Part shown: in pieces, positions 5,346 through 42,528 of the stretch | Layout: the number at the start of each line of letters is the position of its first letter | How positions within the stretch are numbered: position 1 is the stretch's first letter | Assembly: GCA_014323935.1 (NCBI GenBank) | Contig: JACOND010000005.1 | Span: 17,428 to 81,427 of the forward strand | Direction of reading: 5' to 3' | Length of the DNA stretch: 64,000 nt | DNA from: Bdellovibrionales bacterium | GTDB taxonomy: Bacteria; Bdellovibrionota; Bdellovibrionia; Bdellovibrionales; UBA1609 | Notes under the pieces: generated by a model | Database searches by the model: none | What the model saw: the letters and a program-made list of their open reading frames with translations, nothing else | What the model was told of the DNA's origin: nothing | Position numbers and translations under genes: made by a program

Positions 5346-7214
5346 TTAGCTCGTTTTCTTAAGGAAAGAAAAAAAACTGGTTTTTTTAGTTTTCTGCTCT
5401 TCTTTTCGTTTTTGCTTTACTTTAAGCAGTTCTTTTTTAGCTTGAGGAAAATCACTTTGAATCAAAATAGTTTTTTTAAAAAAATCTTCTGCTTTTTCAT
5501 ACTTTTTACATTTTAAATAGAAAAGTCCTACGACAAACCAATACAAATAAGAGGCTCTTAAATGAAGAGGAACTTTATTAATTTCTTTATTCATTTTTAT
5601 CAAAGCTGTTTTTTTATCTTTACCTAAAGAATCTAAGAAATTCCCTTTTAATTGAGCCCAGAATAAATAAAGTTGAATGTTTTTAGGAGTTTGTTTATGA
5701 TCTTTAATTTGTGATAGAATTTGAAAAGATTGTTCATATTTTTCTTCTTCAATCAAATCAATTCCTTTTTTATACTGATCCATGATTTCTATTAAATTTT
5801 GATTGGTATAGTTTTTGTTTTTTAATAGGTTTTGATAAATTGAGGTCAATTTTTCTTGGATATGGTCTAATTTTTTTTTTGTTTCAGATGTAATTTCTTT
5901 ACTTTGAGTGTAATGAAAAATTTGAGAACTCATTTCTTTGTATTTTTGTTTGATTTCTTTTTTTGAAACAACAGCTATATTTCCTGTTAATAGGGAGGCA
6001 AGCTCCTGGTTTGATTTTGATGAGATTTCATCTATAAATAGGAGCATGGTTTCATTATTTGTTTCAGATTCTTTTAGAAAGAAAGATTTTGTTAATAAAC
6101 CAAAATAGATGAAAGGAATTATTTCTTCTTGATGTTTTTTCGTGAGCTGTGAGAGAGTTTGATGATTCTCACAGGATTTAAAAAAAGTGTTATATTGATT
6201 TAAAAAATTTCTTTGATTGAGGGAAAAAGTATTTAACTGAGTCAACTTATTAATTTGATAGGATTTAAATTTTGAATAGAAATATTTCCAAAAATCATCT
6301 TTTATTTCTGTTTGAACACTGTCAGCTAACCAATCTATAAATTCTGGTTTATTGAAATCAAATTCTATTTTGTCGTAATTTTCTGAGTTTTTTGAAAGGA
6401 TTTTTAATTTAAAGGACGGATGAGACATAAACTCTGAGAGTCGAATTTTAACTTGTTCTTTTAAAATAAAATCCAACATATGAGGGCTTAAAAGTTTTTT
6501 TTCTAAAAGCCTTTCACCTATTTTTTTATTATCTGTTTTATCCTTTAAAACAGATTGGATATCTTCTGTAAGAGATAAGCCATGTTCAATTAAAAGGGTT
6601 CCTAAAAAGGAGCTATTACTTCTTGAAACAACTTGAATTATTTTTCCTTTATAAAAATGAATGTAATTTTCTTGAGAGTTGATCTCTAAGACAATATCTC
6701 CTGTGAATGATTTTAAATGAGCTAAAAAGATGAGAGGGATGAGTAAATGAGATTCAAAGTTGTCAGATTCAGGGAAATAAAAGTTTAAAGGATTTTGAGG
6801 GATGCCTTTTTCTAAAAAGAAAGACCAAGGATTTGGTTTTGTTGTTTTTGAAGAAGACGTGTGAGGAGATGTAAATTTTAATATTTTTTTTTCATCAAAT
6901 GGTTTTTTGAAAAACCCATAGTTTTTTTTAGCAATCTCAGGAATGTTTTTTAAAATAGTATTTTCATTAAAAAAACCACTGATTATAGCTACTTTTGATT
7001 TTACATTTTTCTCTAATAAAGTATTAATAACTTCAACTCCTTTGACATCTGTTAAAAGAATATCTAAAACGATCAATTGAAAATTGTTATTTATAACAAG
7101 AGAGGAAACAGAACTCCAAGAAGAATTGATTTGAACCGACCATCCTTGTTCTGAAAGTAGTTTTTTAAGAGATTCGGCTAGAGAAAGATTATCTTCTAAA
7201 ATAAGTGCTTTCAT
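5346..7214 (-). CDS. response regulator: CheY-like receiver + DUF4388-like segment + TPR-like C-terminus
   Basis: REC domain has an acidic pair (LEDN), phospho-acceptor context IVLDILLTD and KP in FFKKPF. The middle block GDIVLEINSQENYIHFYKGKIIQVV resembles DUF4388. The C-terminus has TPR-like helical repeats (YEKAEDFFKKTILIQSDFPQAKK). No DNA-binding output domain. Confidence 0.7.
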   Translation of the reverse strand: MKALILEDNLSLAESLKKLLSEQGWSVQINSSWSSVSSLVINNNFQLIVLDILLTDVKGVEVINTLLEKNVKSKVAIISGFFNENTILKNIPEIAKKNYGFFKKPFDEKKILKFTSPHTSSSKTTKPNPWSFFLEKGIPQNPLNFYFPESDNFESHLLIPLIFLAHLKSFTGDIVLEINSQENYIHFYKGKIIQVVSRSNSSFLGTLLIEHGLSLTEDIQSVLKDKTDNKKIGERLLEKKLLSPHMLDFILKEQVKIRLSEFMSHPSFKLKILSKNSENYDKIEFDFNKPEFIDWLADSVQTEIKDDFWKYFYSKFKSYQINKLTQLNTFSLNQRNFLNQYNTFFKSCENHQTLSQLTKKHQEEIIPFIYFGLLTKSFFLKESETNNETMLLFIDEISSKSNQELASLLTGNIAVVSKKEIKQKYKEMSSQIFHYTQSKEITSETKKKLDHIQEKLTSIYQNLLKNKNYTNQNLIEIMDQYKKGIDLIEEEKYEQSFQILSQIKDHKQTPKNIQLYLFWAQLKGNFLDSLGKDKKTALIKMNKEINKVPLHLRASYLYWFVVGLFYLKCKKYEKAEDFFKKTILIQSDFPQAKKELLKVKQKRKEEQKTKKTSFFSFLKKTS

Positions 7215-7281
7215 ACAGATTTCTAATCGGTTTTTTAAATTGAAAACTTAAATCTGTTTTTTTAAGAGATGAACTCATCTT

Positions 7282-8097
7282 TTAAATTTCAAGACCGTTA
7301 TTAGACCAGTTCAAACAAAAAGAATGTCCTGATTGAAAAGGATATCCTTGAAAATCATCTGAGAAATCATGTTTTTTTCCATAGGCTATAAAGGCCAAGC
7401 CCTTCCAAGCCGGTCTAGATTTATAAAAATTTTGAATCTGTAGTTTTAACTCTTGTTCTCGGTATTGATAAATCCAATAAGAATTGAGATTGTTTATATC
7501 TGTAAAATTATTTCCTAACTTAGCTAAAACAAGATCAAAACTTTGTTTTTCAATAACTTTATAGAGTCTACGAATTTCCTTTAAAAAATAAAGAGTTAAA
7601 CTAGCTCCCATCGTCCAAAGATAATCTTTTTGTAGTTGATTTAGGTGTTCGTAAAAAGCAGGAAATCCTGATTGAAACAGTTTTAAAGCTAAATTTTTTC
7701 TTTCTGTTACAAAAAATTTAGAACCATCTAACTTAGTAAAAGAATCAGAACTGTTAGAAACATAATTTTCATTGTAAGTATCATCTGTAATATGTTCATC
7801 AAAGACAGCAAGAGCTTGATAAGAGCGATTGTAATCTATGAGGGTGTGTAACAGTTGAAATTGAGATTTTACCACAGTTTCAAAGACTTCTGTTGAAATA
7901 TTATCTGCTTTAGGAGGGGAATGGTACATAGGAAAGTGAACGATAGAGTATCCTGGATCAAAGACACAAGTTCTGAAATTTTGATTTGTTAAACTTAAAG
8001 GTCTTGAAGAAATTTGTTGTTTGTATCCCGGATTTATTCCTTGAGAACAGGCCAGTAATATCCATGGGATTAAAAAGAGAAAAAGTTTTTTATACAC
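7282..8097 (-). CDS. hypothetical lipoprotein, co-directional and 9 nt downstream of rodA
   Basis: 271 aa. Canonical lipobox LLAC|S after a hydrophobic N-terminus. No recognisable domain. Confidence 0.55.
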   Translation of the reverse strand: MYKKLFLFLIPWILLACSQGINPGYKQQISSRPLSLTNQNFRTCVFDPGYSIVHFPMYHSPPKADNISTEVFETVVKSQFQLLHTLIDYNRSYQALAVFDEHITDDTYNENYVSNSSDSFTKLDGSKFFVTERKNLALKLFQSGFPAFYEHLNQLQKDYLWTMGASLTLYFLKEIRRLYKVIEKQSFDLVLAKLGNNFTDINNLNSYWIYQYREQELKLQIQNFYKSRPAWKGLAFIAYGKKHDFSDDFQGYPFQSGHSFCLNWSNNGLEI

Positions 8098-8106
8098 TTT
8101 TTTATA

Positions 8107-9204
8107 TTAAAATAAATTTTTATCTTTGTAAATACTTGTAGCTATTCCTAGAAAAGTCATAGTTGTGATAAGATTGGATCCTCCGTAAGATAATAGAGGA
8201 AGAGGTATTCCAACGACAGGAAAAAGACCCATAACCATAGATATGTTTAAAACGACATGCCACATCAAAAAGGAACCTATAGCTAGACAAAAGTAGCAAC
8301 TCAGCCGGTCTCTTGTTGAACGTGCTAAATTAAAAATAAAAACAATCATTAAAAAATAAACAGATAAGACAAAGGAGCTTCCTAAAAAACCATATTCTTC
8401 ACTTAAAACACTAAAGATAAAATCGGTGTGTCTTTCTGGAAGAAATTGTAGTTTATTTTGAGTTCCTTTTTTAAAACCTTTGCCAAAAATTTGCCCGCTT
8501 CCTATGGCAATTTTTGATTGAATCACATTATATCCTGTTCCTTGGGGGTCTTTTCCTGGTTTTATAAAACTAAGAACTCGTGATTTTTGATAGGGCTTTA
8601 AAATAAAACTCCATATCAAAGGCGTACTTGTTATAAAAAGAGCAGAAAAAATGAAAAGAGTTTTTCTCTCTACACCTTGGAATAAAATCAAGCTAGCAAT
8701 TATAATTAATGTGATTCCAGCTGTTCCTAAATCCGGTTGTAAAAAGACTAAAAAAAGAGGAGGAATTAGGGTGAAAAAAAAAGGTAAGAGGTTCATAAAA
8801 TCAAAAGGTTTTCTAAGAGGGCGTTGAGAGATTTTATGGGCTGTTAATAAAACTAAAATAATTTTTAGAGTTTCAGAAGGTTGATAATAAAAGAATCCTA
8901 AGTTTAACCATCGTTTGGCAGAATCAACTTCTTTTCCAAGAATAAAAATGAGACTAAGACATATCATGTGGAATAAAAAAAGAGGCCAGAGTGTTTTTAC
9001 GATAAAGGTAATTTTTATATAGGAGATAATAAAGAAAATGATCCAAGAGATTAGAATCCATAGGAGTTGTTGTTTAAAAAGGAAAGGTTTTTCAAAAGAA
9101 GTACTATAAATAGAAAGCCAGCCTATTCCTTGTAAAATTAAGATATAAGATAGGAAAAATGGATTAAAACTCTTTAATTTTTCATACACAAAGGATATTT
9201 TCAT
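8107..9204 (-). CDS. rodA: SEDS-family peptidoglycan glycosyltransferase RodA
   Basis: 365 aa polytopic membrane protein. FtsW/RodA/SpoVE blocks (PERHTDFIFSVLSEEYGF, LPLLSYGGS). Its start overlaps the PBP2 stop by 1 nt. Confidence 0.85.
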   Translation of the reverse strand: MKISFVYEKLKSFNPFFLSYILILQGIGWLSIYSTSFEKPFLFKQQLLWILISWIIFFIISYIKITFIVKTLWPLFLFHMICLSLIFILGKEVDSAKRWLNLGFFYYQPSETLKIILVLLTAHKISQRPLRKPFDFMNLLPFFFTLIPPLFLVFLQPDLGTAGITLIIIASLILFQGVERKTLFIFSALFITSTPLIWSFILKPYQKSRVLSFIKPGKDPQGTGYNVIQSKIAIGSGQIFGKGFKKGTQNKLQFLPERHTDFIFSVLSEEYGFLGSSFVLSVYFLMIVFIFNLARSTRDRLSCYFCLAIGSFLMWHVVLNISMVMGLFPVVGIPLPLLSYGGSNLITTMTFLGIATSIYKDKNLF

Positions 9205-18703: not shown

Positions 18704-19261
18704 TTAATTTAAATTTTTTTTAAGAGTATTTCGATTGAGACCTAAAAAATAAGCCGTTTTTATTTTATTATAATTAAAATGTTTTAACGTGGTGTGAATA
18801 ATGGTTTGTTTGATTGGATTTCCTATTTTAAATAGAATATTGTTATTAGGTAATTTATTATAAGACATCTCCAAATAAAGTTTAGCGTGTGAAACTGTTA
18901 AAAGATTTAAAGAAGATATAGAACTTAAAAAGAGTTCACTTAGATAAAAGGTAGAAGAGATATTTTTAGTTAGAAGTTTGTCGATATCTAAATGGTAATA
19001 AAGAATTTTCTTTTTAAGGGTGTTTCGGTTAATGTTTAAGGCATGAGCTGTTTTTAATTGATTGCCTCTATTTTTTTGGAGAATAACTTCAATAAGGGCC
19101 TGTTCTACAGGCTCATAGAAGGTTTTGAGAATTCTTTGACCTAAAGGTTTTTGGTTTAGAAAAAAAAGGAGTTTTTTTTGGACAATATCTTCAAGTTTTA
19201 CTGCATTTAGATTGATAATAATGGAATGTTTGGCTTGACTGATAGGAGGTTGTAAGTCCAT
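18704..19261 (-). CDS. protein with two tandem Fis/NtrC-type (HTH_8) DNA-binding domains
   Basis: Likely start is MDLQPP at 19261. First HTH: VEQALIEVILQKNRGNQLKTAHALNINRNTLKKKI. Second HTH: IKQTIIHTTLKHFNYNKIKTAYFLGLNRNTLKKNL. Ends 9 nt upstream of dnaB. Confidence 0.6.
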   Translation of the reverse strand: MDLQPPISQAKHSIIINLNAVKLEDIVQKKLLFFLNQKPLGQRILKTFYEPVEQALIEVILQKNRGNQLKTAHALNINRNTLKKKILYYHLDIDKLLTKNISSTFYLSELFLSSISSLNLLTVSHAKLYLEMSYNKLPNNNILFKIGNPIKQTIIHTTLKHFNYNKIKTAYFLGLNRNTLKKNLN

Positions 19262-19357
19262 ATAATAATTAATAATATTTAATGCTAAAAAAAGCAATTT
19301 AAAAAAAAATAAAAAAACAGACTTTTTCTTTATTAAAAATTTATTTATAATTAAACT

Positions 19358-21808
19358 ATGTCTTGGAGTAAGAAAATAAAAGAAAAAACTAAAAAAAATA
19401 GGTTAAAAGCTTTTTTTATATTAGCTTTTTTAATTTTTTTAAGTTTAAGTCTTTATAGCTATCATCCGCAAGATACTTCTTTAAATTCTGTAGGTTTTTC
19501 TTTAAAAGTAAGTAATTATTGTGGTTTTGTAGGGGCTACTTTAGCCGATTTTATATATCAGTTTTTTGGTTTTCTTGGGGCATGGTTAATTGTTTTAACG
19601 ACTTTAGGGGTGGTTTGTAAACTTTTTCTACAACCTTTAAGTGAGAATTATCTCAGTCATTTTATAGTTTTTATAGTTTTTTTATTTTCCTTTGTAAGTT
19701 TAGCTGCACTCCATTTTCCCTTAGTGAGTTTTTACAATCAGGAAATTAGTTTAGCTGGATTTTTTGGTCTTAAGTTTGTCTCTATTTTTAAACCTTTTTT
19801 TGGAACTATTGGAACGGGAATTATTTTATGGTCTATTTTTATAGTCTTTTTTATTCTTTATGGACAATTTCTTTATCCTTTACTTTTAAGATTTCCTAAA
19901 AAACTTTTAATTTCTCTATTTTTATTTACTAAGCAAAAAGGGAATTCATTAAAATTTTTATTTCGTTTTGGATACAAACATTTTTTTAAACTAGGACTTG
20001 TTAAATTTCTAAAAAAAATAAAAAAACAATTTAAATCGGTTTTTAGATTTTTTAGATTAAAGAAAAATTTCAAGAAAAAAGATAAAAATTTGAATCTAGG
20101 TTTACAAAAAACTGTCTTTGATGAAAAAAAAGAAATTTCATCAAAAGACTCTTTAAATTTAAACTCTCTATCTATAAAAAAATCTGCTTTAGGAGATGAA
20201 TTTTCAATCAAAGAAAATTCTGATTCTGATTTAAAATTAAATCCTTTAAAAGAAAAAAACTCTAAACCTTCTTTTGCTGTTTTAAATAAACCTGATTCCT
20301 TCGATGTTAGGCAGCTTCCTTCTATTAATTTGTTATCAGACCCTCCCTCGGTTTCTAAAAAGATAAGTTCTCAAGAGGTTGAAGAACTTTCTAAAAAACT
20401 TTTAGATAAACTCAAACAGTTTTCTATTGAAGGTCAAATTAAAGCTATTAAAACGGGACCGGCTCTCGTTTTATTTGAGTATAAACCGGAAAATCATGTC
20501 AAAGTAAGTCAAATAAAAAATATGGAAAGTGATTTGAGTTTAGCTTTAAGTAGTGAGTCTGTTCGTATTATTGCTCCTATTCCTGGAAGAGATGTTATAG
20601 GGATTGAAGCTTCTATGCCTTTTAGGGAAATGGTTTATTTAAAAACACTTCTTCAAGAGGAAGATTTTTCAAAAATAACTTTACCCTTAGTTTTAGGTCG
20701 TAGAGCCGATAATAAGGTTGGGATTAAAGATTTAGCTCGTATTCCTCATTTGTTAGTTGCAGGGACAACAGGTTCAGGTAAGTCTATGTTTATTATTAGC
20801 TTTATTTGTTCTTTATTATTTCGTCACACTCCTGATAATTTAAAATTTTTATTGATAGATCCTAAGCAAGTTGATCTATCTAGTTTTAAAGGAATTCCTC
20901 ATTTATTAGCTCCTATTATTCATTCTGTTTCTTCAGCTATTCAATCTTTACACTGGGCTATTCAAGAAATGGAGAAAAGATATCGTTCTTTAGCTGAATT
21001 CAAAGTTCGAGATCATAAATCCTTTAATCAAGTCGTGACAAAACTTTCTCAAAAAGAGAAAGATTTTCATGAACAAAAGAGTCAAGAAATAGAAGATACT
21101 TATTATTTTCAAAAGATTCCTTTAATAACCATTGTTATTGAAGAGTTTGGAGATCTCATGGCAGATCCTACAGCTCGGCGTCCTATTGAAAATGCGGTGG
21201 TTCGTCTCGCTCAAAAAGCAAGAGCTAGTGGTATTCATTTAGTTTTAGCGATGCAAAGTCCTAGAAAGGATGTTGTAACAGGTTTAATAAAAACAAATAT
21301 ACCAGGTCGTATTAGTTTTAAGGTAGCAAGTGGAACGGATTCTAGAATCATATTAGATGATATGGGAGCTGAAAGATTACTTTCTCATGGAGATATGCTG
21401 TTTTTAGAGCCAGGAAGTTTAAAAGCAGCTCGCTATCATGGTCCTTTTATGAGAGATCGAGAAGTGTCTGCAATCGCCTCTTATTGGAGAGATCTTAGTG
21501 AATCTTTTTATGAGGAAAATTTGATGGAAATTTTAAACAAAGGAGAAACTCAACAATCTAGTTTTAAAGGGCATTCTCTTAAAAAAGACTCAATGTATAA
21601 TGAAATTTTAGATTTTGTTAAAACTTGTGACGTTATAAGTGCTTCTCTTTTACAGAGAAAATTTCAAATTGGTTATCCTAGAGCAGGACGTATCATTCAG
21701 GATTTGTTTGATAAGGGAGAGATAGGTCCTCCTAGAGGCAGTAAACCTCGTCTTGTTTTAAATAAAAAAAACAAATCTTCTAGAGAAGTTGAAAATCCTA
21801 GATTTTAA
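19358..21808 (+). CDS. ftsK: DNA translocase FtsK
   Basis: 816 aa. N-terminal TM segments, a Lys-rich linker, Walker A GTTGSGKS, Walker B IVIEEF and a C-terminal gamma wHTH (LLQRKFQIGYPRAGRIIQDL). Confidence 0.95.
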   Translation: MSWSKKIKEKTKKNRLKAFFILAFLIFLSLSLYSYHPQDTSLNSVGFSLKVSNYCGFVGATLADFIYQFFGFLGAWLIVLTTLGVVCKLFLQPLSENYLSHFIVFIVFLFSFVSLAALHFPLVSFYNQEISLAGFFGLKFVSIFKPFFGTIGTGIILWSIFIVFFILYGQFLYPLLLRFPKKLLISLFLFTKQKGNSLKFLFRFGYKHFFKLGLVKFLKKIKKQFKSVFRFFRLKKNFKKKDKNLNLGLQKTVFDEKKEISSKDSLNLNSLSIKKSALGDEFSIKENSDSDLKLNPLKEKNSKPSFAVLNKPDSFDVRQLPSINLLSDPPSVSKKISSQEVEELSKKLLDKLKQFSIEGQIKAIKTGPALVLFEYKPENHVKVSQIKNMESDLSLALSSESVRIIAPIPGRDVIGIEASMPFREMVYLKTLLQEEDFSKITLPLVLGRRADNKVGIKDLARIPHLLVAGTTGSGKSMFIISFICSLLFRHTPDNLKFLLIDPKQVDLSSFKGIPHLLAPIIHSVSSAIQSLHWAIQEMEKRYRSLAEFKVRDHKSFNQVVTKLSQKEKDFHEQKSQEIEDTYYFQKIPLITIVIEEFGDLMADPTARRPIENAVVRLAQKARASGIHLVLAMQSPRKDVVTGLIKTNIPGRISFKVASGTDSRIILDDMGAERLLSHGDMLFLEPGSLKAARYHGPFMRDREVSAIASYWRDLSESFYEENLMEILNKGETQQSSFKGHSLKKDSMYNEILDFVKTCDVISASLLQRKFQIGYPRAGRIIQDLFDKGEIGPPRGSKPRLVLNKKNKSSREVENPRF

Positions 21809-21868
21809 ATAAAAATTAAAACAATTCAAAAATAAAGGGAATTATACATGTTAGTAAACTTAGTAAAA

Positions 21869-21903
21869 CTATAACAGAGGCTTTATAAAAAAAACCATCG
21901 TTT
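21869..21903. repeat. left copy of a perfect 35-bp inverted repeat bracketing the pilin gene
   Basis: CTATAACAGAGGCTTTATAAAAAAAACCATCGTTT. Its exact reverse complement is at 23099-23133. Confidence 0.9.
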
Positions 21904-21935
21904 CAAAAGAATTTTAAGGACTTAAATTTTTTTAA

Positions 21936-21964
21936 TAGAAATTTGTGTATAAATTATGTATAAT
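21936..21964 (+). promoter_or_regulatory. candidate sigma-70 promoter for the pilin gene
   Basis: TAGAAA, a 17-nt spacer, then TATAAT (21959-21964), 24 nt upstream of the ATG. An AAGGAG SD follows. The promoter lies inside the inverted-repeat bracket. Confidence 0.3.
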
Positions 21965-21987
21965 TAGTTAAAAAAGGAGAACTTAAA

Positions 21988-22482
21988 ATGAATCAAGAGT
22001 TAGAAAAATTGAATTCTATGGGTAATAAAGGTTTTTCTCTTATAGAGTTGTTGGTTGTTGTTGCTATTATTGGAGTTTTAGCAGCGGTTGCGATTCCAGC
22101 TTATAACAGATACAAAAACAATGCAAAAACTTCAGCTGTACTAGGTACAATTAACACTATAAACAAAGCTTTTAAATCTTGTATGGCTGTAAAAACTTTT
22201 ACAGATTGTATCCCTTGTTCTGGTTCTAATACTGCGTATAATGCTGGAGATAAGATTATTGATGATACTTTAGAGTTACAAGAAGGAATATCTGTACTGT
22301 GTAGAAAAGGTGTTACAAAAGCTTGTCTTCAGGTTGTTCATAGACCGGCTACGAACGATAAAAAACACAGGGCTTGCATGCTATTTAGTGATACTGGTAG
22401 TGCTGGTGAGGTGGCGATAGATGATACTACTAAACAGGGTAGATGTTCTGGTTCTACTGATAGCAATATACAATGTCAATAG
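21988..22482 (+). CDS. pilA: type IV (T4a-like) major pilin
   Basis: Class III signal: leader MNQELEKLNSMGNKG then FSLIELLVVVAIIGVLAAVAIPAY (prepilin peptidase site G|F, Glu+5). Strong SD upstream. The C-terminal globular part contains 8 Cys. Confidence 0.85.
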   Translation: MNQELEKLNSMGNKGFSLIELLVVVAIIGVLAAVAIPAYNRYKNNAKTSAVLGTINTINKAFKSCMAVKTFTDCIPCSGSNTAYNAGDKIIDDTLELQEGISVLCRKGVTKACLQVVHRPATNDKKHRACMLFSDTGSAGEVAIDDTTKQGRCSGSTDSNIQCQ

Positions 22483-23098
22483 ACACACTTTTTTGACGAA
22501 ACTGAGAAGTCTATGAAGGTACTCCTCTGAGTTTAAGATTTGTATTTTTAAAAAATAACTTTAATTTTTTTTAAATAGAAGAACAGATATGCTATTGATC
22601 TTATTACTTTGAAATTAGTTTACAATGGATAAAATGACCCTAATGAGGCTAGTACCTTGGTATTTCAAAAATACAATCTCATTAAAAAACTAGAGTTTTG
22701 TATTCTTACTTGAAAATTCTAAGCTTATAAAACCTTTTATCTTACTAATTTATCCTTCTAAATTAGTATTTAATATAATTTTTTTCAAATTCTTGTATAC
22801 ATTTGACTTTAACTTGAAGTCCTTAGAAATAAAGAATGACGACATCTTTGCATATCATAAAGCTTCTCTTAAATTTTTATTTATTTAAAGTTTATCTTTT
22901 ATGATTTTTTTACTAAAAAGAGTTAACTTTTGTCTATGGTATCTATTTCACAATTCCCTTTATCTCGTCTAAATTCAAACTTCTTCAAGTATCTATATGA
23001 GGTGATTTTCAATGCCCGCTTTTTGTTTCATTTTTCTATAGTTTTTTTTATAAAAATTTAAATCCCTTAAACTCTGTGTTAAAAATCTTTGAAAATCA

Positions 23099-23133
23099 AA
23101 ACGATGGTTTTTTTTATAAAGCCTCTGTTATAG
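23099..23133. repeat. right copy of the perfect 35-bp inverted repeat
   Basis: AAACGATGGTTTTTTTTATAAAGCCTCTGTTATAG, the reverse complement of 21869-21903 (35/35). Confidence 0.9.
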
Positions 23134-23221
23134 CTTGATTAGGTATTACAGTCACATTTAAATTTCCTAAAATAAATAAAAAGGCTTAAGCTTTTTCAAA
23201 AGCTAACCGATAGTCTTGATA

Positions 23222-23500
23222 ATGAGTGAAAAAAGAAATTGTATGAAGGGGGTTTTTATTTTAGCTTTACTGTTTTTTTCTAATTATGCTTTATCTGATA
23301 AAATTGATAGAAAGCCTTTGAGTTTACAAAACTTAGACAGTCAAGAACACAAAACAGATAAGCAAAAATGCCTACTTAAAAACAAAAAAGAACAACAAAT
23401 CTATACAAACTGTATGTCTAATTATAAACAAAACAAGGAACTTTTTGATAATTTGTATTTATGTTCAAGACCTTCTTCGTTAAACTGTCTATATCTATAA
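23222..23500 (+). CDS. small hypothetical secreted protein
   Basis: Track ORF starts at TTG 23216. An ATG at 23222 or 23243 gives the signal-peptide-like MKGVFILALLFFSNYALS. No domain recognised. Confidence 0.35.
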   Translation: MSEKRNCMKGVFILALLFFSNYALSDKIDRKPLSLQNLDSQEHKTDKQKCLLKNKKEQQIYTNCMSNYKQNKELFDNLYLCSRPSSLNCLYL

Positions 23501-23514
23501 AAAAATGGCTTGAT

Positions 23515-25965
23515 TTATTGACAAGATTCACAAATTTCAGGAGTTTCTAAGTTATTTTCATAAGAGGAATTATGAATCTTTTTTGTATTTTGAGAATCAA
23601 CTGTCACTTTTGCAATGGAAGAGGCAGGACGAGATCTGAGATAATAACTTGTTTTAAGTCCTTTTTTCCAAGCATACATATACATACTAGATAGTTTATT
23701 AATGGTTGGATTTTCTACAAACAAATTGAGAGATTGACTTTGATCTATGTAAGGTCCTCTTGCAATCGCCATATCAATAAGAGTTTTTTGTGAAATTTCC
23801 CAAGATGTTTTATAAAGCTCTTTTATTTTTTGTGGTATCTCTGCTATGTTTTGAATAGAACCTTCTTGAAGCTTAATCTTTTCTTTAATATCTGAAGTCC
23901 AAAGCCTCTCTTTTTTTAAATCTTGAACGAGATACTTATTTATTTGAAGAAATTCTCCAGATAAAGTTTCTCTTTTAAATAAATTAGATATCTGAGGTTC
24001 TATGGATTCATGAACCCCTACAATAGAGGAAATGGTGGCTGTAGGAGCTATGGCAATAATTAAAGAATTTCTCAAGCCTTGTTTTTTAATAAGAGCTTTT
24101 AATTTATCCCAGCGATTTTGATCTTTAGGTGTAAAGTTCCACAAGTCAAATTGAAGATGTCCTTGACTCGCTCTTGTTTCAGAGAATTTTTTATGAGGAC
24201 TGTATTTTTTAGCTAAATCACAAGAAGTAGATAGAGCATGGTAATAAATCTCTTCTTGGATTTTTTTTGTAAGTTTGAAAGCTTCTGGACTTTCAAATGG
24301 AATTTGCATTTTGAAAAAGAGATCTTGTAAGCCCATTAAGCCTAAACCAACCGGTCTCCAAGATTTATTGGATTTTTTTGCATTTCCAATGGGATAGAAA
24401 TTGATATCAATAACTTTATCTAAAAAAGTAATAGCAATACTTACATTATCCGCTAGTTTTTTCCAATTGATATCTTTTGTTTGAGAATCATAGTAATTAG
24501 AAATATTAATAGAACCTAAGTTGCATACAGCTGTTTCCTTTTCAGATGTAACTTCTAAAATTTCTGTGCAAAGATTAGATAAGTGAATGACGTTTTCTGG
24601 TTTAAGGGTTTGTGAGCTTTTTTTATTAGAATGATCTTTGAAATTCATCCAGCCGTTTCCTGTTTCTGCTAAAGTTTTCATCATTTTTGCATAAAGTTTT
24701 CTAGCCATAATAGTCTTTGTGGCTAATCCTTCTTCTTCAGCTTTTTGATATTTTTCCTCAAATTCTTCTCCAAAACTATCTACGAATTCAGGAACATCTT
24801 TGGGATCAAATAAAGACCACAGTTTATCTTCTTCAACTCTTTTCATAAAAAGGTCAGGAACCCAATTGGCAAGATTTAAATTATGAGTTCTTTGCTGTTC
24901 GTCTCCTGTGTTATCTCTAAGTTCTAAAAAGGCTTCGATATCTTGATGCCAAGTATCTAAGTAAATGCATGCAGCCCCTTTTCTCCGCCCCCCCTGGTTG
25001 ACAGCAGCCACAGAGGAATCTAAAGTTTTAAGAAAGGGGATAATTCCGTTTGATTTTCCGTTTGTTCCTTTAATAAGAGAACCACGACTACGAATTCTAG
25101 AAAAAGATAAACCAATACCTCCTGCAAACTTAGATAAAAGAGCGACATCTTTGTATTTATCATAAATAGCAGATAAATCATCTTTAGGAGAATCTAAAAG
25201 ATAACAAGAAGAAAGTTGAGATCTCATCCCTGCCGAATTAAATAAAGTCGGAGAGCTGGGCATATAATCTAAATTGGAAATTAAGTCATAAAAAGTTTTT
25301 GCTTCCTTAAAAGAACTTGATAAACCGCAAGCTACTCTTAGAAAAAAGTATTGAGGGCTTTCAATAACTTGGCGAGTGACAGGGGCTTTTAAAAGATAGC
25401 GATCATAGACTGTTTTAAGTCCAAAATATTCGAATTTTTGAGTTCGAGAATTGTCAATAATAATATTTAAAGCTTCTTTATTTTCTCTAATAAAATCATA
25501 CTTTTCTTTGTTGATGAGACCTGATTTATAACCTGTTTTAACAGAAGCAAAGAAGTTATTAATACCTTGGGTTTCAACCTCTTCGTGTATGTAACGAATA
25601 AGCAAACGAGCCGAAAGTTTAGAATAATCAGGATCATCAGAAATTAAGAAAGAAGCTGTTCTTATGCAAAGTCTGTCAAGTTCTTTTGTACTGGCTCCGT
25701 CGTATAAGCCACTTATAACTTTTGTAGCGACCCTCATGGGATCCACTTCATTTAAGCCAGAAGAGCAAGCTAAAACAACATTGATAATTTTATTAACATT
25801 TACAGGTTCATAACTATTATCTCTTTTCTTAACTCTCATAATTTTAGGACCTGAGAGTTGAGAGTTTTCCTCATTTATTAAGTCTTCTTTAAAAGAAGAA
25901 TTAATAGGAGTTTGATGGAGAGGCTTTGTCGTATTTTGATTTAAAAGGGAGGATGATTTATCCAT
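23515..25965 (-). CDS. nrdA: ribonucleoside-diphosphate reductase, class I alpha subunit
   Basis: 816 aa. ATP-cone (MRVKKRDNSYEPVNVNKI) after a 44-aa N-terminal extension. Catalytic blocks NLCTEI, CNLGSIN and PTATIS. Radical-transfer Tyr pair in KTSYYLR (class I hallmark). C-terminal CESC redox pair. No nrdB in the window. Confidence 0.9.
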   Translation of the reverse strand: MDKSSSLLNQNTTKPLHQTPINSSFKEDLINEENSQLSGPKIMRVKKRDNSYEPVNVNKIINVVLACSSGLNEVDPMRVATKVISGLYDGASTKELDRLCIRTASFLISDDPDYSKLSARLLIRYIHEEVETQGINNFFASVKTGYKSGLINKEKYDFIRENKEALNIIIDNSRTQKFEYFGLKTVYDRYLLKAPVTRQVIESPQYFFLRVACGLSSSFKEAKTFYDLISNLDYMPSSPTLFNSAGMRSQLSSCYLLDSPKDDLSAIYDKYKDVALLSKFAGGIGLSFSRIRSRGSLIKGTNGKSNGIIPFLKTLDSSVAAVNQGGRRKGAACIYLDTWHQDIEAFLELRDNTGDEQQRTHNLNLANWVPDLFMKRVEEDKLWSLFDPKDVPEFVDSFGEEFEEKYQKAEEEGLATKTIMARKLYAKMMKTLAETGNGWMNFKDHSNKKSSQTLKPENVIHLSNLCTEILEVTSEKETAVCNLGSINISNYYDSQTKDINWKKLADNVSIAITFLDKVIDINFYPIGNAKKSNKSWRPVGLGLMGLQDLFFKMQIPFESPEAFKLTKKIQEEIYYHALSTSCDLAKKYSPHKKFSETRASQGHLQFDLWNFTPKDQNRWDKLKALIKKQGLRNSLIIAIAPTATISSIVGVHESIEPQISNLFKRETLSGEFLQINKYLVQDLKKERLWTSDIKEKIKLQEGSIQNIAEIPQKIKELYKTSWEISQKTLIDMAIARGPYIDQSQSLNLFVENPTINKLSSMYMYAWKKGLKTSYYLRSRPASSIAKVTVDSQNTKKIHNSSYENNLETPEICESCQ

Positions 25966-26019
25966 TTAGACCCTTTCATTTGAAAATAAATTACCATACT
26001 TTAGAATCCTCCTTTAATT

Positions 26020-26290
26020 TATGCAAAATGTTGAAAAAGACATTTCTAAAGTATTAAAAAGGATATGACTTGTCAATTGTATAAATTTTATACAAGGTAT
26101 TGAAAAAGATATTTTTTTACCTAAAAGTCTTAAAAGAAAGATATTACTTGTTAATTATATAAATTTTACGCAAGGTATTGAAAAAGATATTTTTTTACCT
26201 AAAGTCTTAAAAAAAGATATGACTTGTCAATTGTATAAATTTATGTAAGGTATTGAAAATTACCTAAAAAAGATATGACTTGTTAATAAC
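26020..26290. repeat. degenerate tandem repeat array, unit about 77 bp, roughly 3.5 copies
   Basis: Units start at 26062, 26140, 26216 and 26272 (partial), with a partial unit before 26062. Unit: GATATGACTTGTCAATTGTATAAATTTTATACAAGGTATTGAAAAAGATATTTTTTTACCTAAAAGTCTTAAAAG. Copy 1 carries the perfect 19-bp palindrome TTGTATAAATTTTATACAA (26077-26095). Confidence 0.85.
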
Positions 26291-26580
26291 TTTGTTAAAA
26301 CTAATGTGGTTGTCATGGGAACAATCTCCTACTAATAAAGGAGTTAGAAAGTAGTAGAATTCATCTATATGGATAAAAGCACATTTCTTCACGAAGCAAA
26401 TAAATATGTTAAAGATGGGTTTACAACTAAATAGTAAAAATTTTTGAGTTTTAATAAAAGTAGAATATAAATGAATTTATTTTTTAAATCAAGAAAATTG
26501 TAATAAAGTCACAATGGAAATTTTAAAATCTTTACATGAAAATATAGCTAGTAAAAGATTAACTTATAAAGAAAAATAAC

Positions 26581-27363
26581 ATGGAAAATTTAAATAACTT
26601 TATTTCAAATTTTTTAGATAATAAATATTGTTTAAAAAACAAGCTGTATAATGGTTATGGTGAAATATTTTTAGGGGATTGTTTTGATCTTTTGAAATAT
26701 ATTCCTGATGGCACAATAGATTTAATAGCAACAGATCCTCCTTATGAAATAAATTTTGAAAATAATGATTGGGACAAAAAACAAATCAATTGGAGTTTCT
26801 TATCGAATGAATTTTTAAGAGTATTGAAACAAAACGGAAATCTTATTTTATTTCAAGGTTGGTCTAATGTTGTGAAGACAATAAACAATTTTAATAAAAA
26901 ATTCATTTTAAAAAATTGGATTATATTCGACAGAATAAAAGGAAGGGGTGCTAAAACCAATTTTGTTTCAACAAGAGAAGATATTTTGTGGTTTATTAAA
27001 AGCGAAAAATATCAATATAATAAAATGCCTTCAAATATAATAAAAAAAACCAGAGGAATGGGAGATAAAAACGGAACAAGATTTAGAGCTTTATCTAATG
27101 TATGGACAGATATATCTCCAATCGTCCCATGGGATTCTGAAAGAGTCAATCACCCAACACAAAAACCAGTGGCATTAATGAATAGAATTGTTAATATATT
27201 TTCAAAAAAAGATGATATTGTTTTAGATTGTTTTGCTGGTTCAGGAACTACAGCTGTATCATGTATAAAAAATAAAAGAAAATTTATTTGTTTTGAAAAA
27301 GATATAAAATATTTTAATTTATCTAAAAAACGAATAAAAAATGTCATTAAAGAGATTTGTTGA
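26581..27363 (+). CDS. beta-class N6-adenine/N4-cytosine DNA methyltransferase (N-4/N-6 methylase domain), apparently orphan
   Basis: 260 aa. Catalytic motif IV ATDPPY precedes the AdoMet motif I DCFAGSGTT (beta-class order), plus HPTQKPVAL. No intact restriction endonuclease gene is adjacent. Confidence 0.85.
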   Translation: MENLNNFISNFLDNKYCLKNKLYNGYGEIFLGDCFDLLKYIPDGTIDLIATDPPYEINFENNDWDKKQINWSFLSNEFLRVLKQNGNLILFQGWSNVVKTINNFNKKFILKNWIIFDRIKGRGAKTNFVSTREDILWFIKSEKYQYNKMPSNIIKKTRGMGDKNGTRFRALSNVWTDISPIVPWDSERVNHPTQKPVALMNRIVNIFSKKDDIVLDCFAGSGTTAVSCIKNKRKFICFEKDIKYFNLSKKRIKNVIKEIC

Positions 27364-27392
27364 ATTTTTAACTAAATTTAAAAAAATAAAAC

Positions 27393-27771
27393 TTGGGACT
27401 TCTGACTGTAAGAAATAACAACATGGATATGACTTCCTGTCTTAAATATTTTGTTAAAGGATTTTTATTCCAAAGGAATGAAGTTAGGGACATTGGGAAA
27501 AAAGTTATCTTGAAAGATGCTCTCATAAAAAATCATAATCTTTCTAAAAGACAGAAAATCATTTTGGAGTATCTTTTAGATAATAACAAATTATGATAAA
27601 ATTCTTACTCAGTTTGAAAAGTCAGATAAAAGTTTAAAAACATCAGCTAAAGTGACAAAAAGGACGCTTCAAAGAGATCTAAAAGATATGATTGGTAAAA
27701 AAATCATAGAGTCGAAAGGTAAAACCAATCAAAAATTTTATCATCTTGTAAAAGAAGGATTGAATTTATGA
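27393..27771 (+). pseudogene. remnant resembling the C-terminal wHTH region of a Fic/DOC-family protein
   Basis: LSKRQKIILEYLLDNNKL, then double stops and a frame change, then VTKRTLQRDLKDMIGKKIIESKGKTNQKFYHLV. This pattern is typical of Fic-family C-termini. No HPFxxGNGR core is present. Confidence 0.35.
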
Positions 27772-27821
27772 TAAAACTTACGACAAAACTTGTGACATTT
27801 TTATAACAAGGAGTTTGATAA

Positions 27822-28230
27822 ATGACGAATAATATTAAAAAAATTGCTTTTGAAAAAGCTATAGAACAGCATCTTTTAAATAAGGGTGGATACATTAGGG
27901 GTATAGGAAACACTTTGATTGCTTCGTGGCATGGATTCTAAAATGCTAAATTCTTTTATAAAAGAAACTCAAAAAAAGAATGGGAAGCTTTATATAAGCT
28001 TCAAAAAGAGAAAACAGAAGAGATTCTAATTGAAGACTTATGTAAGGCTTTAGATTCAAATTATGAAGGCTGTTTAAAATTTCTTCCGTACATGAGCTTT
28101 AAATGTTTTGGAAAGCTCTTTAGAGTGGCTTATTTTGCTCCTGCTAGTGGATTAAATTCCGATACTCAAAAACTCTATTCTTCAAGCAAGCTGACTTTCA
28201 CAAGGCAACTTAAATACAGTAGTAAAAATT
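27822..28230 (+). pseudogene. hsdR: N-terminal fragment of a type I restriction enzyme R subunit (HsdR), frameshifted and truncated
   Basis: MTNNIKKIAFEKAIEQHLLNKGGYI... continues across at least two frames as FIKETQKKEWEALYKL...FGKLFRVAYFAPASGLNSDTQKLYSSSKLTFTRQLKYSSKN. This matches the conserved HsdR N-terminal block (..AYF.P.SGLN....LY..N.L.VTRQ..YS). Helicase domains are absent. Confidence 0.6.
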
Positions 28231-28246
28231 TTTACTTCGGAAGCTC

Positions 28247-28829
28247 ATGATTCAACAGATAGGTTACGCCCAGCCTATCATTCCAGTGCTTTTCTATCAT
28301 GAAAAAGAGTCTTTAAAGTGGAAAAATTATCTTCAAGAGGAAAATTTTAAGTTATTTTTTTCAAAAATTCCTAGAGAATCAAGAGAGAGTATGTTAAACT
28401 ATGAACCAAAGATAATAAATATGCAAAGACCTTAAAATAAGAAAGGCGTCTAAGAAGTTTAAAGGACATGGGCTTATAAAGTTATTAGATGAGATATGGA
28501 GTTTAAAAAAGAACATAAATCTTTTAAAGACAATAGAAACTTATATAGGTTTTGAGGAGATATTGAAAGGTTTAAAGCTAGAAAGACAGTTAAGGATATG
28601 GGAGTATTAAAAGAAGGAGGACTTATGCAAGATGTAAGAGAAGTTATTAAAGAAAAAGGGATTTGGGAAGGAATGCAAAAAGGACGATAAGAAGTGCAAA
28701 AAATTGTTTTAAATATGCTGAAAGAAAGATATTGCTTTTATTTCTAAAATTACAGGTTTTTTTAAAGAAGAAATTAAAGAAGAATTCTTAAAAAGAGCTA
28801 CTAGTATTTTACTTATTGGGTTTAAGTAA
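28247..28829 (+). pseudogene. C-terminal fragment of an Rpn-family (YhgA-like) recombination-promoting nuclease/putative transposase
   Basis: PIIPVLFYHEKESLKW...LNYEPKIINM, followed in other frames by EGMQKG.. and ISKITGFFKEEIKE, typical of Rpn C-terminal halves. The N-terminal PD-(D/E)xK domain is missing and there are multiple stops. Confidence 0.5.
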
Positions 28830-29088
28830 ATATTTGTCTTTAAACTTTATCAAAAGACTTAAAGTGTTCAAAATTTGTCTAGTATAAAGAAAAAACTTCT
28901 TAAATTCCTTAATTATTTTTTATGAAGCTGGAAAAAATTTGATTTTTGTTATAAAAATAAGGGTAAGGAATTAAGTTAAAAAAGTATTTAAAAAGGAATA
29001 TCTTAAGTTTATCAAATTTGCTTTCTATTTTGATGTTTGATAAAGGTTAGTTTTGTGTAAATTAACAAAAAAAAGGATTTTTTTGGTT

Positions 29089-41450: not shown

Positions 41451-41540
41451 GGAGAGGTGGCAGAGCGGTTGATTGCACCGGTCTTGAAAACCGGCAGACC
41501 TTTACGGGTCTCGGGGGTTCAAATCCCTCCCTCTCCGCCA
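41451..41540 (+). tRNA. tRNA-Ser (anticodon UGA), long variable arm, CCA encoded
   Basis: Acceptor GGAGAGG/CCTCTCC. Anticodon stem CCGGT/ACCGG with loop CTTGAAA (TGA). Extended variable arm CAGACCTTTACGGGTCTC. T-arm GGTTCAAATCC. Confidence 0.95.
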
Positions 41541-41558
41541 ATTTTAAAATAACTAACT

Positions 41559-42528
41559 ATGAGAAACATAAAGTCCAACTTAAAATTTATTGATTTTTGT
41601 GCTGGAATAGGTGCTGGAAGAATTGGTTTGGAATCTCTAGAGATGAAGTGTGTTGGTTTTTCTGAAATTGATAAAAACTCTGAAAAAACATATAGAGATT
41701 TTTTTGGTTTTGATGAAAATAAATTTTGAAGACTTACCAGATTTTAATCTCATGATTGCAGGTTTTCCATGTCAAACTTTTTCTATCCTTGGAAAGAGAT
41801 AAGGGATGAAAGAGAATCGGGGTCAAATTATTTATGGCTTGATAAAGATAATGAAAGCAGTAAATCTGAAATATTTTAGAGAATGTGAAAGGGCTTTTAA
41901 ATCATGGTGGTGGTTTCTCAATGAAGCTTAATCTTAAAGGAATTGGATAAAGCGGGTTATAAAGTATTTTGGAAATTAACAAACAGTTTATATCATGGCG
42001 TTCCGCAAATGAGGGAGAGAATTTATTTTGTTGGAGTAAGAAAAGATTTAGTAAGAAATGAAAGTGTTTTTCAATTTCCAAAAGAAATTAAAAAACCAGA
42101 TCTGAGTAAATACCTAGTAAATACTGAGGAATTGGAACTGAATGAGAAGAAAACCAGCTATGAGACTTTTTTAAGATATTTAAAAAATAAATATAATAAA
42201 AATAAATTTTCAATAGAAAAATTATTAGAAGAAGATTTTTTAGTCATAGATACACGTCAATCTGATTTGAGGTTATATCGTGACAAGGTTCCTAAGCTAA
42301 GAACAGGAAGACATGGGATTTTGTATGTAAGAGATGGAAAATTTAGAAAACTATCTGGCGATGAGGCTTTATCTTTGCAAGGATTTCCTGAAGAATTGAG
42401 AGAAAAAGTAAAAGGTAAAATTGTAGACATGTATTTTAGGGAAGGCAGGAAATGCCATGACGGTAAATGTGGTTAGAGCTTTTGGAGAAAGCCTTTTAAA
42501 TTTTATAAAAAAACAAGCTGAAAAGTAA
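41559..42528 (+). pseudogene. dcm: DNA (cytosine-5) methyltransferase gene, multiply frameshifted/nonsense-interrupted
   Basis: All C5-MTase motifs are present but spread over three frames. Motif I DFCAGIGAG, IV GFPCQTFS, VI LENVKGL, VIII GVPQMRERIYFVG, X AGNAMTVNVV. In-frame stops follow DENKF and ILGKR. Starts 18 nt after tRNA-Ser. Confidence 0.8.

Follow-up and report, generated by a model that had tools for sequence, protein, structure and literature searches.

The type IV pilin gene pilA in the stretch of DNA analysed here (64 kb, hereafter the window) is bracketed by a 35-bp inverted repeat. We read this repeat as the relic of a second, convergent pilin cassette, which lost its −10 box and coding sequence and whose 35-bp core was gene-converted, and we put the probability of this reading at about one half.

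The proposed events start with ~1.7 kb of lineage-specific DNA (~21770–23500), which would have brought in a pilin paralogue and its promoter between the convergent housekeeping genes ftsK and nrdA. An inverted duplication of the pilin cassette would then have produced the inverted repeat, the left arm being the upstream region of the live pilA and the right arm the same region of a second cassette, tail-to-tail with the first. Deletion of the −10 box and the whole coding sequence of this second cassette, ~0.6 kb, would have left its upstream region (23042–23133) and its 3′ flank (block Y and R2, 22852–22998) as remnants; these, together with pilA's own 3′ flank, would make up the ORF-free tail behind the gene. 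A gene-conversion tract between the arms would best account for the perfect 35-bp core within arms of 76–79% identity. pilA would be transcribed from its internal promoter in either orientation, and the repeat would not be an ON/OFF device. We infer the order of events to be duplication, deletion, conversion.

Table 1. Features of the ftsK–nrdA region, with positions counted along the window
Feature	Position	Strand	Remarks
ftsK	19358–21808	+	Pfam domains; last 12 codons (~21770–21805, NKSSREVENPRF) missing in relatives
R1L, left arm, perfect 35-bp core	21869–21903	+	17-nt motif ATAAAGCCTCTGTTATA on the minus strand at 21870–21886, outer core end
Left-arm inner extension, into the −35 box	21908–21941	+	79% to reversed 23042–23075
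Probable pilA promoter, TAGAAA-17-TATAAT	21936–21964	+	Top sigma-70-like match of the region
Shine–Dalgarno, AAGGAG	21974–21979	+	8 nt 5′ of ATG, read from the sequence
pilA, type IV pilin, 164 aa	21988–22482	+	G|FSLIE prepilin motif, conserved C-terminal cysteines
pilA 3′ flank	22483–22851		No homologue found, no ORF >36 aa, RNA structure not significant
R2 copy	22852–22893	+	93% to L003 132–172, left arm of the paralogue's inverted repeat; motif ATAAAGCTTCTCTTAAA at 22857–22873
Block Y	22883–22998	−	74% to L003 959–1070, DNA just 3′ of the paralogous pilin; reversed relative to pilA
Putative deletion junction	22999–23041		Minus-strand right arm keeps TATAGAAA (−35 box), homology gone before the −10 box, no coding sequence
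Right-arm inner extension	23042–23075	−	Followed by 23 nt (23076–23098) in place of 4 nt in the left arm (net +19 nt)
R1R, right arm, perfect 35-bp core	23099–23133	−	17-nt motif on the plus strand at 23116–23132
ORF94, small cysteine-rich protein	23216–23500	+	Signal-peptide-like N-terminus; outside the bracket, within lineage-specific DNA
nrdA	23515–25965	−	Convergent with ftsK; C-terminus and stop codon conserved in relatives

The arms of the inverted repeat

The repeat is as exact as an earlier note on this DNA had stated: CTATAACAGAGGCTTTATAAAAAAAACCATCGTTT on the plus strand of the left arm recurs on the minus strand of the right arm with 0 mismatches (35/35), and the arms, 1195 nt apart, enclose a short segment. 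None of 100 shuffles yielded any 35-mer match, which places the repeat beyond chance expectation. A dispersed REP- or MITE-type repeat, a possibility raised in the same note, found no support in the sequences searched. The 35-mer has no further copy in the window with up to three mismatches allowed, in four other contig stretches of the source sample (~55 kb) or in a viral contig collection, and the JGI metagenome collection, in which the source sample is evidently not included, gave one chance match inside a gene of an unrelated organism.

Outwards the core extends weakly, with 7 of the next 11 bases identical, giving 46-nt arms at 91%. Taken alone, the outer flanks are not significantly similar (their score was reached by 116 of 500 shuffles), and the repeat is therefore sharper on its outside than a decayed duplication predicts. 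Inwards, beyond the net 19-nt insertion in the right arm, a further 34 nt match at 79% (21908–21941 versus 23042–23075), a similarity of marginal significance (9 of 500 shuffles). The minus strand of the right arm reads as the upstream region of pilA: the core at 35/35, then the 34 nt at 79% up to the −35 box, with the homology stopping short of the −10 box.

At the 76–79% identity of the neighbouring sequence, the probability of a perfect 35-nt run under uniform divergence is ~0.003–0.01. The closest paralogue of pilA, at locus L003, has only a loosely similar stretch in the place of the R1 core, and there it takes the opposite orientation relative to the promoter. The improbable run and this loose, inverted counterpart together argue for local homogenisation over a site conserved across paralogues, and gene conversion between arms only ~70–90 nt long is plausible.

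A 17-nt motif, ATAAAGCYTCTSTTAWA, is common to both arms, a copy in the tail and the L003 arm. It gave five matches, against 0.73 expected in the window; the three copies at the window locus are all non-coding. The motif was found only at this locus and at L003, being absent from the pilin loci L006, L008 and L010.

The core could also be a duplicated protein-binding site, occupied on either side of pilA by a regulator or architectural protein, for example a Fis-like HTH_8 protein, and could then activate pilA and ORF94 from upstream or serve in DNA looping. The distance from the end of the core is 85 nt to the pilA ATG and 83 nt to the start of ORF94, which would suit such a role; the core contains a short palindrome, TATAA-N8-TTATA, and HTH_8-only proteins are encoded in the window at 18704–19297 and 49192–49593. 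The core is, however, oppositely oriented relative to pilA and to ORF94, and its counterpart upstream of the L003 pilin is poorly conserved as well as inverted. Upstream of the other paralogues the motif is missing, although the core promoter block is conserved there. ORF94 is itself essentially an orphan whose reality as a gene is uncertain: a search of 1.84 billion representatives returned the protein itself and one match (34% identity, E = 1.4e-4). We regard a binding site as highly unlikely.

The inserted DNA and its pilin gene

Comparison with relatives supported the earlier suggestion that the cassette is an insertion. In the two closest relatives, L011 (FtsK 69% identical, 1.90-Mb contig) and L012 (FtsK 68%), the gene order is the same as in the window: mreC, surA, x, tRNA synthetase, aldolase, polyprenyl synthase, dnaB, HTH_8 and ftsK, facing nrdA and two large unknown genes. 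Both relatives have an empty site, where ftsK and nrdA nearly abut and the spacer is without pilin, tail or ORF94. Their stop codons are 24 and 102 nt apart, respectively, and the 1.7-kb ftsK–nrdA interval is therefore lineage-specific inserted DNA. FtsK ends in ...GSKPRLVLNKKNKSSREVENPRF in the window and in ...GSKPREVLVRK in L011; since the 12 terminal ftsK codons are missing in relatives, the lineage-specific DNA begins at about the ancestral stop codon. The conserved C-terminus and stop codon of nrdA fix its right edge at 23501–23514. A contig scan of GTDB species genomes for relatives returned only an unrelated Fretibacterium pilin.

The product of pilA carries the N-terminus of a type IV prepilin with class III signal peptide, Glu standing at +5 of the cleavage motif and a hydrophobic helix coming next; it reads KGFSLIELLVVVAIIGVLAAVAIPAY, with F16–P37 invariant in 16 homologues, and matches the Pfam family PF07963 (N_methyl) at E = 3.2e-8 (33.2 bits versus a cutoff of 21.2). 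C65, C74 and C113 are invariant in the homologue alignment, and positions 130, 153 and 163 are at least 90% conserved; from this pattern the conserved cysteines of PilA would be expected to form disulphides. The TAGAAA-17-TATAAT element is the probable pilA promoter, with transcription predicted to start near 21971, and the promoter block TTTTATAGAAATTTRTGTATAAT is kept upstream of four of the five aligned paralogues. Candidate promoter, Shine–Dalgarno sequence and the entire pilA ORF all lie between the arms, as the note had described. Inspection by eye gave no convincing match to a sigma-54 promoter or a dif-like site. Over most of the window the cumulative GC skew climbs steadily and never turns back for long; the window is therefore not a replication terminus.

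As a delimited cassette the bracketed segment did not stand up, because the inserted DNA passes both arms, by ~100 nt on the left and by 367 nt, including ORF94, on the right, and no target-site duplication accompanies them. On inspection of the sequence, no direct repeat abuts either the 35-bp core or the 46-nt arm boundaries. An 8-mer, AAAATAAA, that lies close to either end when the arms are defined more loosely, at 130 nt, was not counted as a target-site duplication, because the outer flanks of these arms are not significantly similar.

These boundaries bear directly on a non-autonomous mobile cassette, whose arms would be terminal inverted repeats and which a transposase acting in trans would have moved into the spacer with pilA as cargo. 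The empty site in the relatives and the sharp outer edge of the repeat would fit such an element. So would L003, whose pilin is also repeat-bracketed at a different lineage-specific position: its own inverted repeat spans 126 nt (82%), the pilin is missing from the yajC–secD spacer of the relative L014, and the right arm ends ~30 nt from the point where homology to the relative resumes. Against it, besides the missing target-site duplication and the DNA beyond both arms, the arms at the window and at L003 differ, and their common motif is oppositely directed relative to the cassette ends. No further copy was seen in any of the collections scanned for the 35-mer, and the 64-kb window encodes no transposase domain. 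A known IS, phage or plasmid origin was rejected by blastn, which matched only the conserved pilin N-terminus, on one Acinetobacter plasmid. MITEs and Correia-type repeat-enclosed elements, of 100–600 bp, are multicopy and free of cargo and are flanked by target-site duplications. The window locus shares with them perfect terminal-type inverted repeats and the lack of a transposase, but in the sequences searched shows none of these other features. We consider a mobile cassette unlikely.

The ORF-free tail and the pilin paralogues

The tail between pilA and the right arm (22483–23098) is free of longer ORFs, as had been noted, its longest ORF being 43 aa. That the gap is unusual is correct only in part: the ORF-free stretch of 733 nt (22483–23215) ranks third in the window among gaps between ORFs ≥70 aa, behind gaps of 1689 and 1325 nt.

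The source sample holds at least five related pilins, pilA included. The L003 pilin is 65% identical to PilA in protein and lies beside secDF, in a different contig from this sample (JGI 3300012945 / SAMN04939377); secD of the same organism is also present in SRR10406140. L003 and the window are likely to come from one genome, as they share the sample, a similar composition and the nearest relative. Tail positions 22852–22998 resemble this locus, with block Y matching L003 959–1070 at E = 2e-14. On the minus strand the order at the window is upstream arm, 43 nt, Y, R2, and at L003 it is promoter, pilin, 42 nt, Y, R2. The two orders are collinear; Y and R2 match, in reverse, the DNA directly downstream of the L003 pilin. 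An sRNA explains the tail less well than do the decayed flanks of a second pilin cassette in inverted orientation.

A degraded second pilin within the tail was rejected: tblastn with pilA and a 16-sequence profile HMM (six-frame translation, filters off) detected no pilin coding remnant there. By eye, the cores themselves could plausibly derive from the 5′ end of a pilin coding sequence, the KGFSLIE block; nhmmer rejected this, as a model of five paralogue 5′ ends run over 21800–23300 matched pilA alone. Because no coding trace survives, the deletion of the second pilin is deduced from its flanks only. The pilA 3′ flank (22483–22851) has no Y or R2 counterpart, and the two cassettes are therefore not simple mirror copies.

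A structured RNA in the tail was likewise rejected, with folding z-scores of −0.76 and −0.10; in Rfam no match reached the gathering threshold, and those at E values up to 10 were at chance level. This also touches on an RNA role for the repeat, in which pairing of the arms in ftsK read-through transcripts would offer RNase III a 35-bp duplex to cleave, with pilA in the loop. A perfect 35-bp RNA duplex is an RNase III substrate, and rRNA processing stalks are cut likewise. Such a duplex would suit the enzyme here; no intrinsic terminator is predicted from ftsK to the right arm, and long complementary arms occur in L003 too. However, the main pilA transcript would miss the left arm, because the conserved promoter lies within it. 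The structure of the tail is no stronger than in shuffled controls, and the arms show no compensatory variation between them. We find an RNA element most improbable.

Other pilin loci show related arrangements. L010, in a relative with a 55% identical FtsK, holds an intact convergent pilin pair with an inverted repeat of 162 nt (93%) that takes in the RBS and the initial 147 nt of coding sequence. At L006 two pilin genes stand in tandem with the degraded 5′ fragment of a pilin in between, indicating that turnover is ongoing in this pilin family.

Inversion and comparison with known systems

The earlier note had likened the locus to an invertible switch of the fimS or Piv type, and this reading gained no positive support. 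Its accompanying statement that the window contains no recombinase gene holds for Pfam-detectable domains: across all ORFs ≥70 aa of the 64-kb window there is no integrase, resolvase or transposase domain. An active cassette would need its 1.2-kb segment to be flipped by a recombinase encoded elsewhere, or by RecA acting on the 35-bp identity, with the core as the crossover site that recombination keeps identical. A perfect core inside diverged arms would be expected of such a site, and the enrichment of the 17-nt motif in the arms, the tail copy and the L003 arm fits as well, as does the R1-like stretch in L003 that faces the opposite way relative to its promoter. Pilins are enriched among predicted targets of programmed inversion, and some invertible regions have no recombinase gene nearby (PMC9881135). 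On the other side, inversion would have no obvious regulatory outcome, because the segment encloses promoter, Shine–Dalgarno sequence and the whole gene, and ftsK and nrdA both run towards it. A second pilin segment for exchange is lacking, and the motif is missing from L006, L008 and L010. The segment also has the same orientation in three of three assemblies, all derived from one sample. In one independent assembly (L002) the left arm falls within a scaffold gap, which might have pointed to inversion; the gap was rejected as such a sign, since it spans 21815–22002, beginning 54 nt before the core and ending 100 nt after it. The DNA here is 20% GC and the right arm was assembled contiguously, so the gap is probably a coverage drop and not an assembly branch. 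Altogether, an actively inverting cassette seems unlikely.

Rather more speculatively, and with little expectation that it will prove correct, a recombinase encoded elsewhere might target the 17-nt motif or the 35-bp core, so that entire pilin expression cassettes, gene as well as promoter, are inverted or transposed. If true, this would be a cassette-shuffling system that seeds pilin paralogues into the spacers of housekeeping genes and keeps the arms identical, unlike fimS, Piv and the shufflon, which rearrange parts of genes or promoters.

In the Moraxella system the crossover sites lie inside the coding sequence of the pilin, a fixed promoter is followed by one or the other of two C-terminal segments, and piv is adjacent. 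The window locus is similar in being a type IV pilin locus with inverted repeats ~1–2 kb apart, but its arms consist of non-coding upstream sequence and enclose both the promoter and the entire gene, and it has neither two opposed pilin coding segments nor, within 64 kb, an adjacent piv (DEDD, IS110-family) or other recombinase gene. Inversion of tfpQ/tfpI in Moraxella lacunata and M. bovis by Piv (Piv/MooV, IS110-related) is treated in two papers (PMIDs 11169105 and 9079926) listed in PMC11208160. The convergent pair at L010, with its repeat over the 5′ coding region, is nearer to Moraxella than the window locus is.

In fimS- and Bacteroides-type invertible promoters, the promoter reads outward into a gene outside the segment, inversion turns that gene off, and the recombinase is usually encoded nearby. 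Short inverted repeats around a promoter-bearing segment are common to these and to the window, whereas here the promoter-like block would drive a gene inside the bracket. The R64/IncI shufflon (Rci, sfx sites, PilV tip adhesin) has sfx sites between alternative C-terminal coding segments, with rci adjacent; the window likewise has three copies of a short motif, in both orientations, close to a type IV pilin gene, but lacks alternative C-terminal segments and a recombinase. Neisseria pilE/pilS and the pilA allele islands of Pseudomonas aeruginosa, beside tRNA-Thr, are pilin families with silent or decayed copies. They share with the present loci several diverged pilins, mosaic high-identity flank patches, pseudogene fragments (as at L006) and the strain- or lineage-specific insertion of a pilin cassette. 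They differ in that we saw no sign of promoterless silent cassettes, the pilin copies seen having their own promoter-like block.

As it stands, the locus is a piece of comparative-genomic natural history and no new mechanism; it would gain in importance if reads showed the segment flipping. Bdellovibrio-like predators need type IV pili to attach to prey and to enter it (PMC4237445). Given this need, and at least five diverged major-pilin genes with rearranging flanks, the organism is a candidate for surface or receptor variation. The flanks of its pilin genes appear to be duplicated, inverted, deleted and homogenised. The genomes concerned, which are Bdellovibrionales-like, are small, about 1.9 Mb. 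The locus is also a clear-cut case of insertion, in which a pilin paralogue entered a conserved pair of convergent genes exactly at their stop codons and FtsK gained 12 residues.

The inverted repeat and the DNA that it brackets

pilA, which lies between the convergent genes ftsK and nrdA, had been described in the earlier note as bracketed by a perfect 35-bp inverted repeat. This was confirmed, as CTATAACAGAGGCTTTATAAAAAAAACCATCGTTT recurs as its exact reverse complement. Even when up to three mismatches are tolerated, the 64 kb hold no further copy, and chance alone would yield none. Outwards, the core is prolonged by 11 bases of which 7 match, so that the arms reach 46 nt (91%); beyond these, similarity of the flanks was not significant, the observed score being reached by 116 of 500 shuffles. 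Inwards of the core, after a net insertion of 19 nt in the right arm, another 34 nt match at 79%; here 9 of 500 shuffles scored as high.

At the neighbouring identity of 76–79%, a perfect run of 35 nt has a probability of about 0.003–0.01, so the core needs its own explanation. A stretch upstream of the pilin gene on L003, another contig of the same sample, is only loosely similar to the core and inverted (alignment score 39; shuffles' 95th percentile 31, maximum 43), and a 17-nt motif common to the arms, a tail copy and L003 was absent from the other pilin loci examined. Local homogenisation, that is gene conversion between the arms, therefore fits better than a family-wide conserved site. 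Such conversion would mean at least occasional recombination between the arms, which makes rare inversion of the bracket possible over evolutionary time scales.

The bracket contains the best sigma-70-like promoter match of the region. Its tail, the DNA 3' of pilA, had been singled out as free of ORFs; the longest ORF is indeed 43 aa, and the stretch is long but not unique, ranking third in length among the window's gaps.

Coordinates of the features in the window and at related loci
Feature	Locus	Coordinates	Remarks
HTH_8 proteins	window	18704-19297; 49192-49593
FtsK extension	window	21770-21808	NKSSREVENPRF
Lineage-specific DNA	window	roughly 21770-23500
Core, left and right	window	21869-21903; 23099-23133
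Inner arms	window	21908-21941; 23042-23075
Promoter match	window	21936-21964	TAGAAA-17-TATAAT
Shine-Dalgarno	window		AAGGAG; within bracket
pilA	window	21988-22482	between ftsK and nrdA; within bracket
Tail match to L003 left arm	window	22852-22893	93% identical
Y (tail block)	window	22883-22998	74% to L003 959-1070, reverse orientation
ORF94	window	23216-23500
Second lineage-specific insertion	window	25966-29052
N6/N4 DNA methyltransferase	window	26581-27363
tRNA-Ser(tga), truncated methyltransferase	window	41451-42476
P0002	L003		65% identical; adjoins secDF
R2 arms	L003	102-227; 1037-1158	126 nt, 82%
Tandem pilins	L006/L007		degraded pilin 5' fragment between
Degraded pilin fragment	L006	5369-5489
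P0004	L008		49% identical; near contig end
G runs	L008	8594-8604; 10903-10913	10-11 G
Convergent pilins	L010	6001-6453 (+); 7271-7729 (-)	within 5834-8433
Tandem repeat	L014	9312-9760	62 bp, 7.3 copies, 94% identity

The three assemblies compared all come from one sample. The window is identical to the JGI metagenome contig Ga0164229_100034, and L002, a second assembly of the region, is identical to it save for a scaffold gap of 100 N in place of 21815-22002. This gap, in DNA of 20% GC, opens 54 nt ahead of the core and closes 100 nt past it; the right arm was cleanly assembled. Taking the gap as evidence of two orientations was rejected, and we read it as a coverage drop.

The ftsK–nrdA interval in relatives

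Homologues of the pilin, FtsK and SecD were labelled as Bdellovibrionales or Oligoflexia MAGs, and the relatives' longest contigs reach about 1.85–1.9 Mb. In the two closest relatives by FtsK, L011 (69% identical) and L012 (68%), gene order is exactly as in the window on both sides, and convergent nrdA directly follows ftsK, with stop codons 24 and 102 nt apart. The window's FtsK has 12 C-terminal residues that these relatives lack, apparently a product of the displacement of the ancestral stop by the inserted DNA; NrdA has the same C-terminus as in the relatives. The near abutment of the two genes in the relatives and the lengthening of FtsK indicate that about 1.7 kb is lineage-specific.

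ORF94, essentially an orphan, lies inside this DNA and outside the repeat, so the inserted DNA does not end at the arms. The idea that the cassette is an insertion was thus supported in part, by the empty site in L011 and L012, but not as regards its arms, which no direct repeat abuts. Of the marks of a MITE-like element, target-site duplication and coincidence of arms with insertion ends are missing, as is dispersal in the window, in about 55 kb of other contigs from the sample and in the viral and metagenome collections scanned. No plasmid or phage similarity was found apart from the pilin N-terminus.

Downstream of nrdA, 3 kb from the pilin insertion, the comparison shows a second lineage-specific insertion. 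It holds an orphan N6/N4 DNA methyltransferase, by which no restriction enzyme domain was seen, and about 1.7 kb with short ORFs only; L011 and L012 have two large unknown genes directly after nrdA. Further along the window, about 400 nt past tRNA-Ser(tga), lies a C-5 cytosine methyltransferase truncated to 177 aa (it matches the profile, of 324 positions, at 130-304 only); an element that integrated at the tRNA gene may have left it behind. Two small proteins contain Fis-type HTH_8 domains only. The one directly upstream of ftsK has two HTH_8 stretches and a position conserved in relatives; that these proteins are encoded close to the pilin locus is probably chance.

Pilin loci of the sample and the origin of the tail

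At least five related pilins occur in the sample, on four contigs, and a promoter-like block (TTTTATAGAAATTTRTGTATAAT) is kept upstream of four of five. The pilin of L003, a contig likely to belong to the same genome as the window, is itself bracketed by an inverted repeat, R2. In L014, the closest complete relative, the yajC–secD spacer contains a tandem repeat and no pilin; the corresponding spacer upstream of secD in the window's organism holds the repeat-bracketed P0002, and homology between L014 and L003 resumes about 30 nt past the right R2 arm.

The tail matches the L003 left arm and, through Y, the DNA just downstream of the L003 pilin. Read on the minus strand, the right part of the bracket runs from a pilA-type upstream region (core and inner arm to TATAGAAA) through 43 nt to Y and R2. 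The order on L003 is promoter, pilin, 42 nt, Y and R2, and the two are collinear save for the missing -10 box and coding sequence. No pilin remnant was detectable in the tail, nor any Rfam match; 22483-22851 lacks homologues, and its RNA folds no better than shuffled controls. The collinearity with L003, together with an intact convergent arrangement in the more distant relative L010, argues for a second, convergent pilin cassette of which the repeat and tail are remnants. Lying tail-to-tail with pilA, this cassette would have been shaped by duplication, then deletion, then conversion, an order that we infer. A recombination scar within a pilin gene family that is expanding is the most likely account of the feature.

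The L006 fragment resembles the neighbouring pilins in their N-terminal coding blocks (76–82% identity) and has frame disruptions; it shows directly that the window's organism harbours pilin pseudogene debris. The genome has about 29% GC, and the G runs of L008, of which one lies about 50 nt from the end of the contig, may be homopolymer tracts or artefacts of two-colour sequencing. Since L003 and L008 both end within about 450 nt of a pilin gene, assembly seems to be interrupted by repeats that lie near pilins.

Possible inversion at pilin loci

The bracket had also been likened to an invertible switch, a claim that we found unsupported. In a fimS-type switch the regulated gene is expected outside the segment, whereas pilA lies inside; Piv-type systems and shufflons are expected to have alternative coding segments and an adjacent recombinase, and here there are neither. 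Flipping the bracket would be nearly symmetrical in effect, since ftsK and nrdA both converge on it. No integrase, resolvase or transposase domain was found in ORFs of at least 70 aa in the 64-kb window, and to that extent the reported absence of a recombinase gene holds. Published surveys list pilins among predicted inversion targets and include some invertible regions without a nearby recombinase (PMC9881135); the switch and transposon-like readings are therefore kept as minority rivals to the recombination scar. That the feature marks a trans-acting system of cassette inversion or mobilisation seems to us improbable.

L010 (ENA ERZ25071928 contig_3) has two full-length convergent pilins; in each, the RBS and the first 147 coding nt belong to an inverted repeat of 162 nt (93%). 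The pair adjoins a histidine kinase and a sigma-54 activator, and the first pilin gene is directly preceded by a (TTAT)x26.5 microsatellite. This locus is a better candidate than the window, be it for pilin inversion of the Moraxella kind or for slipped-strand phase variation.
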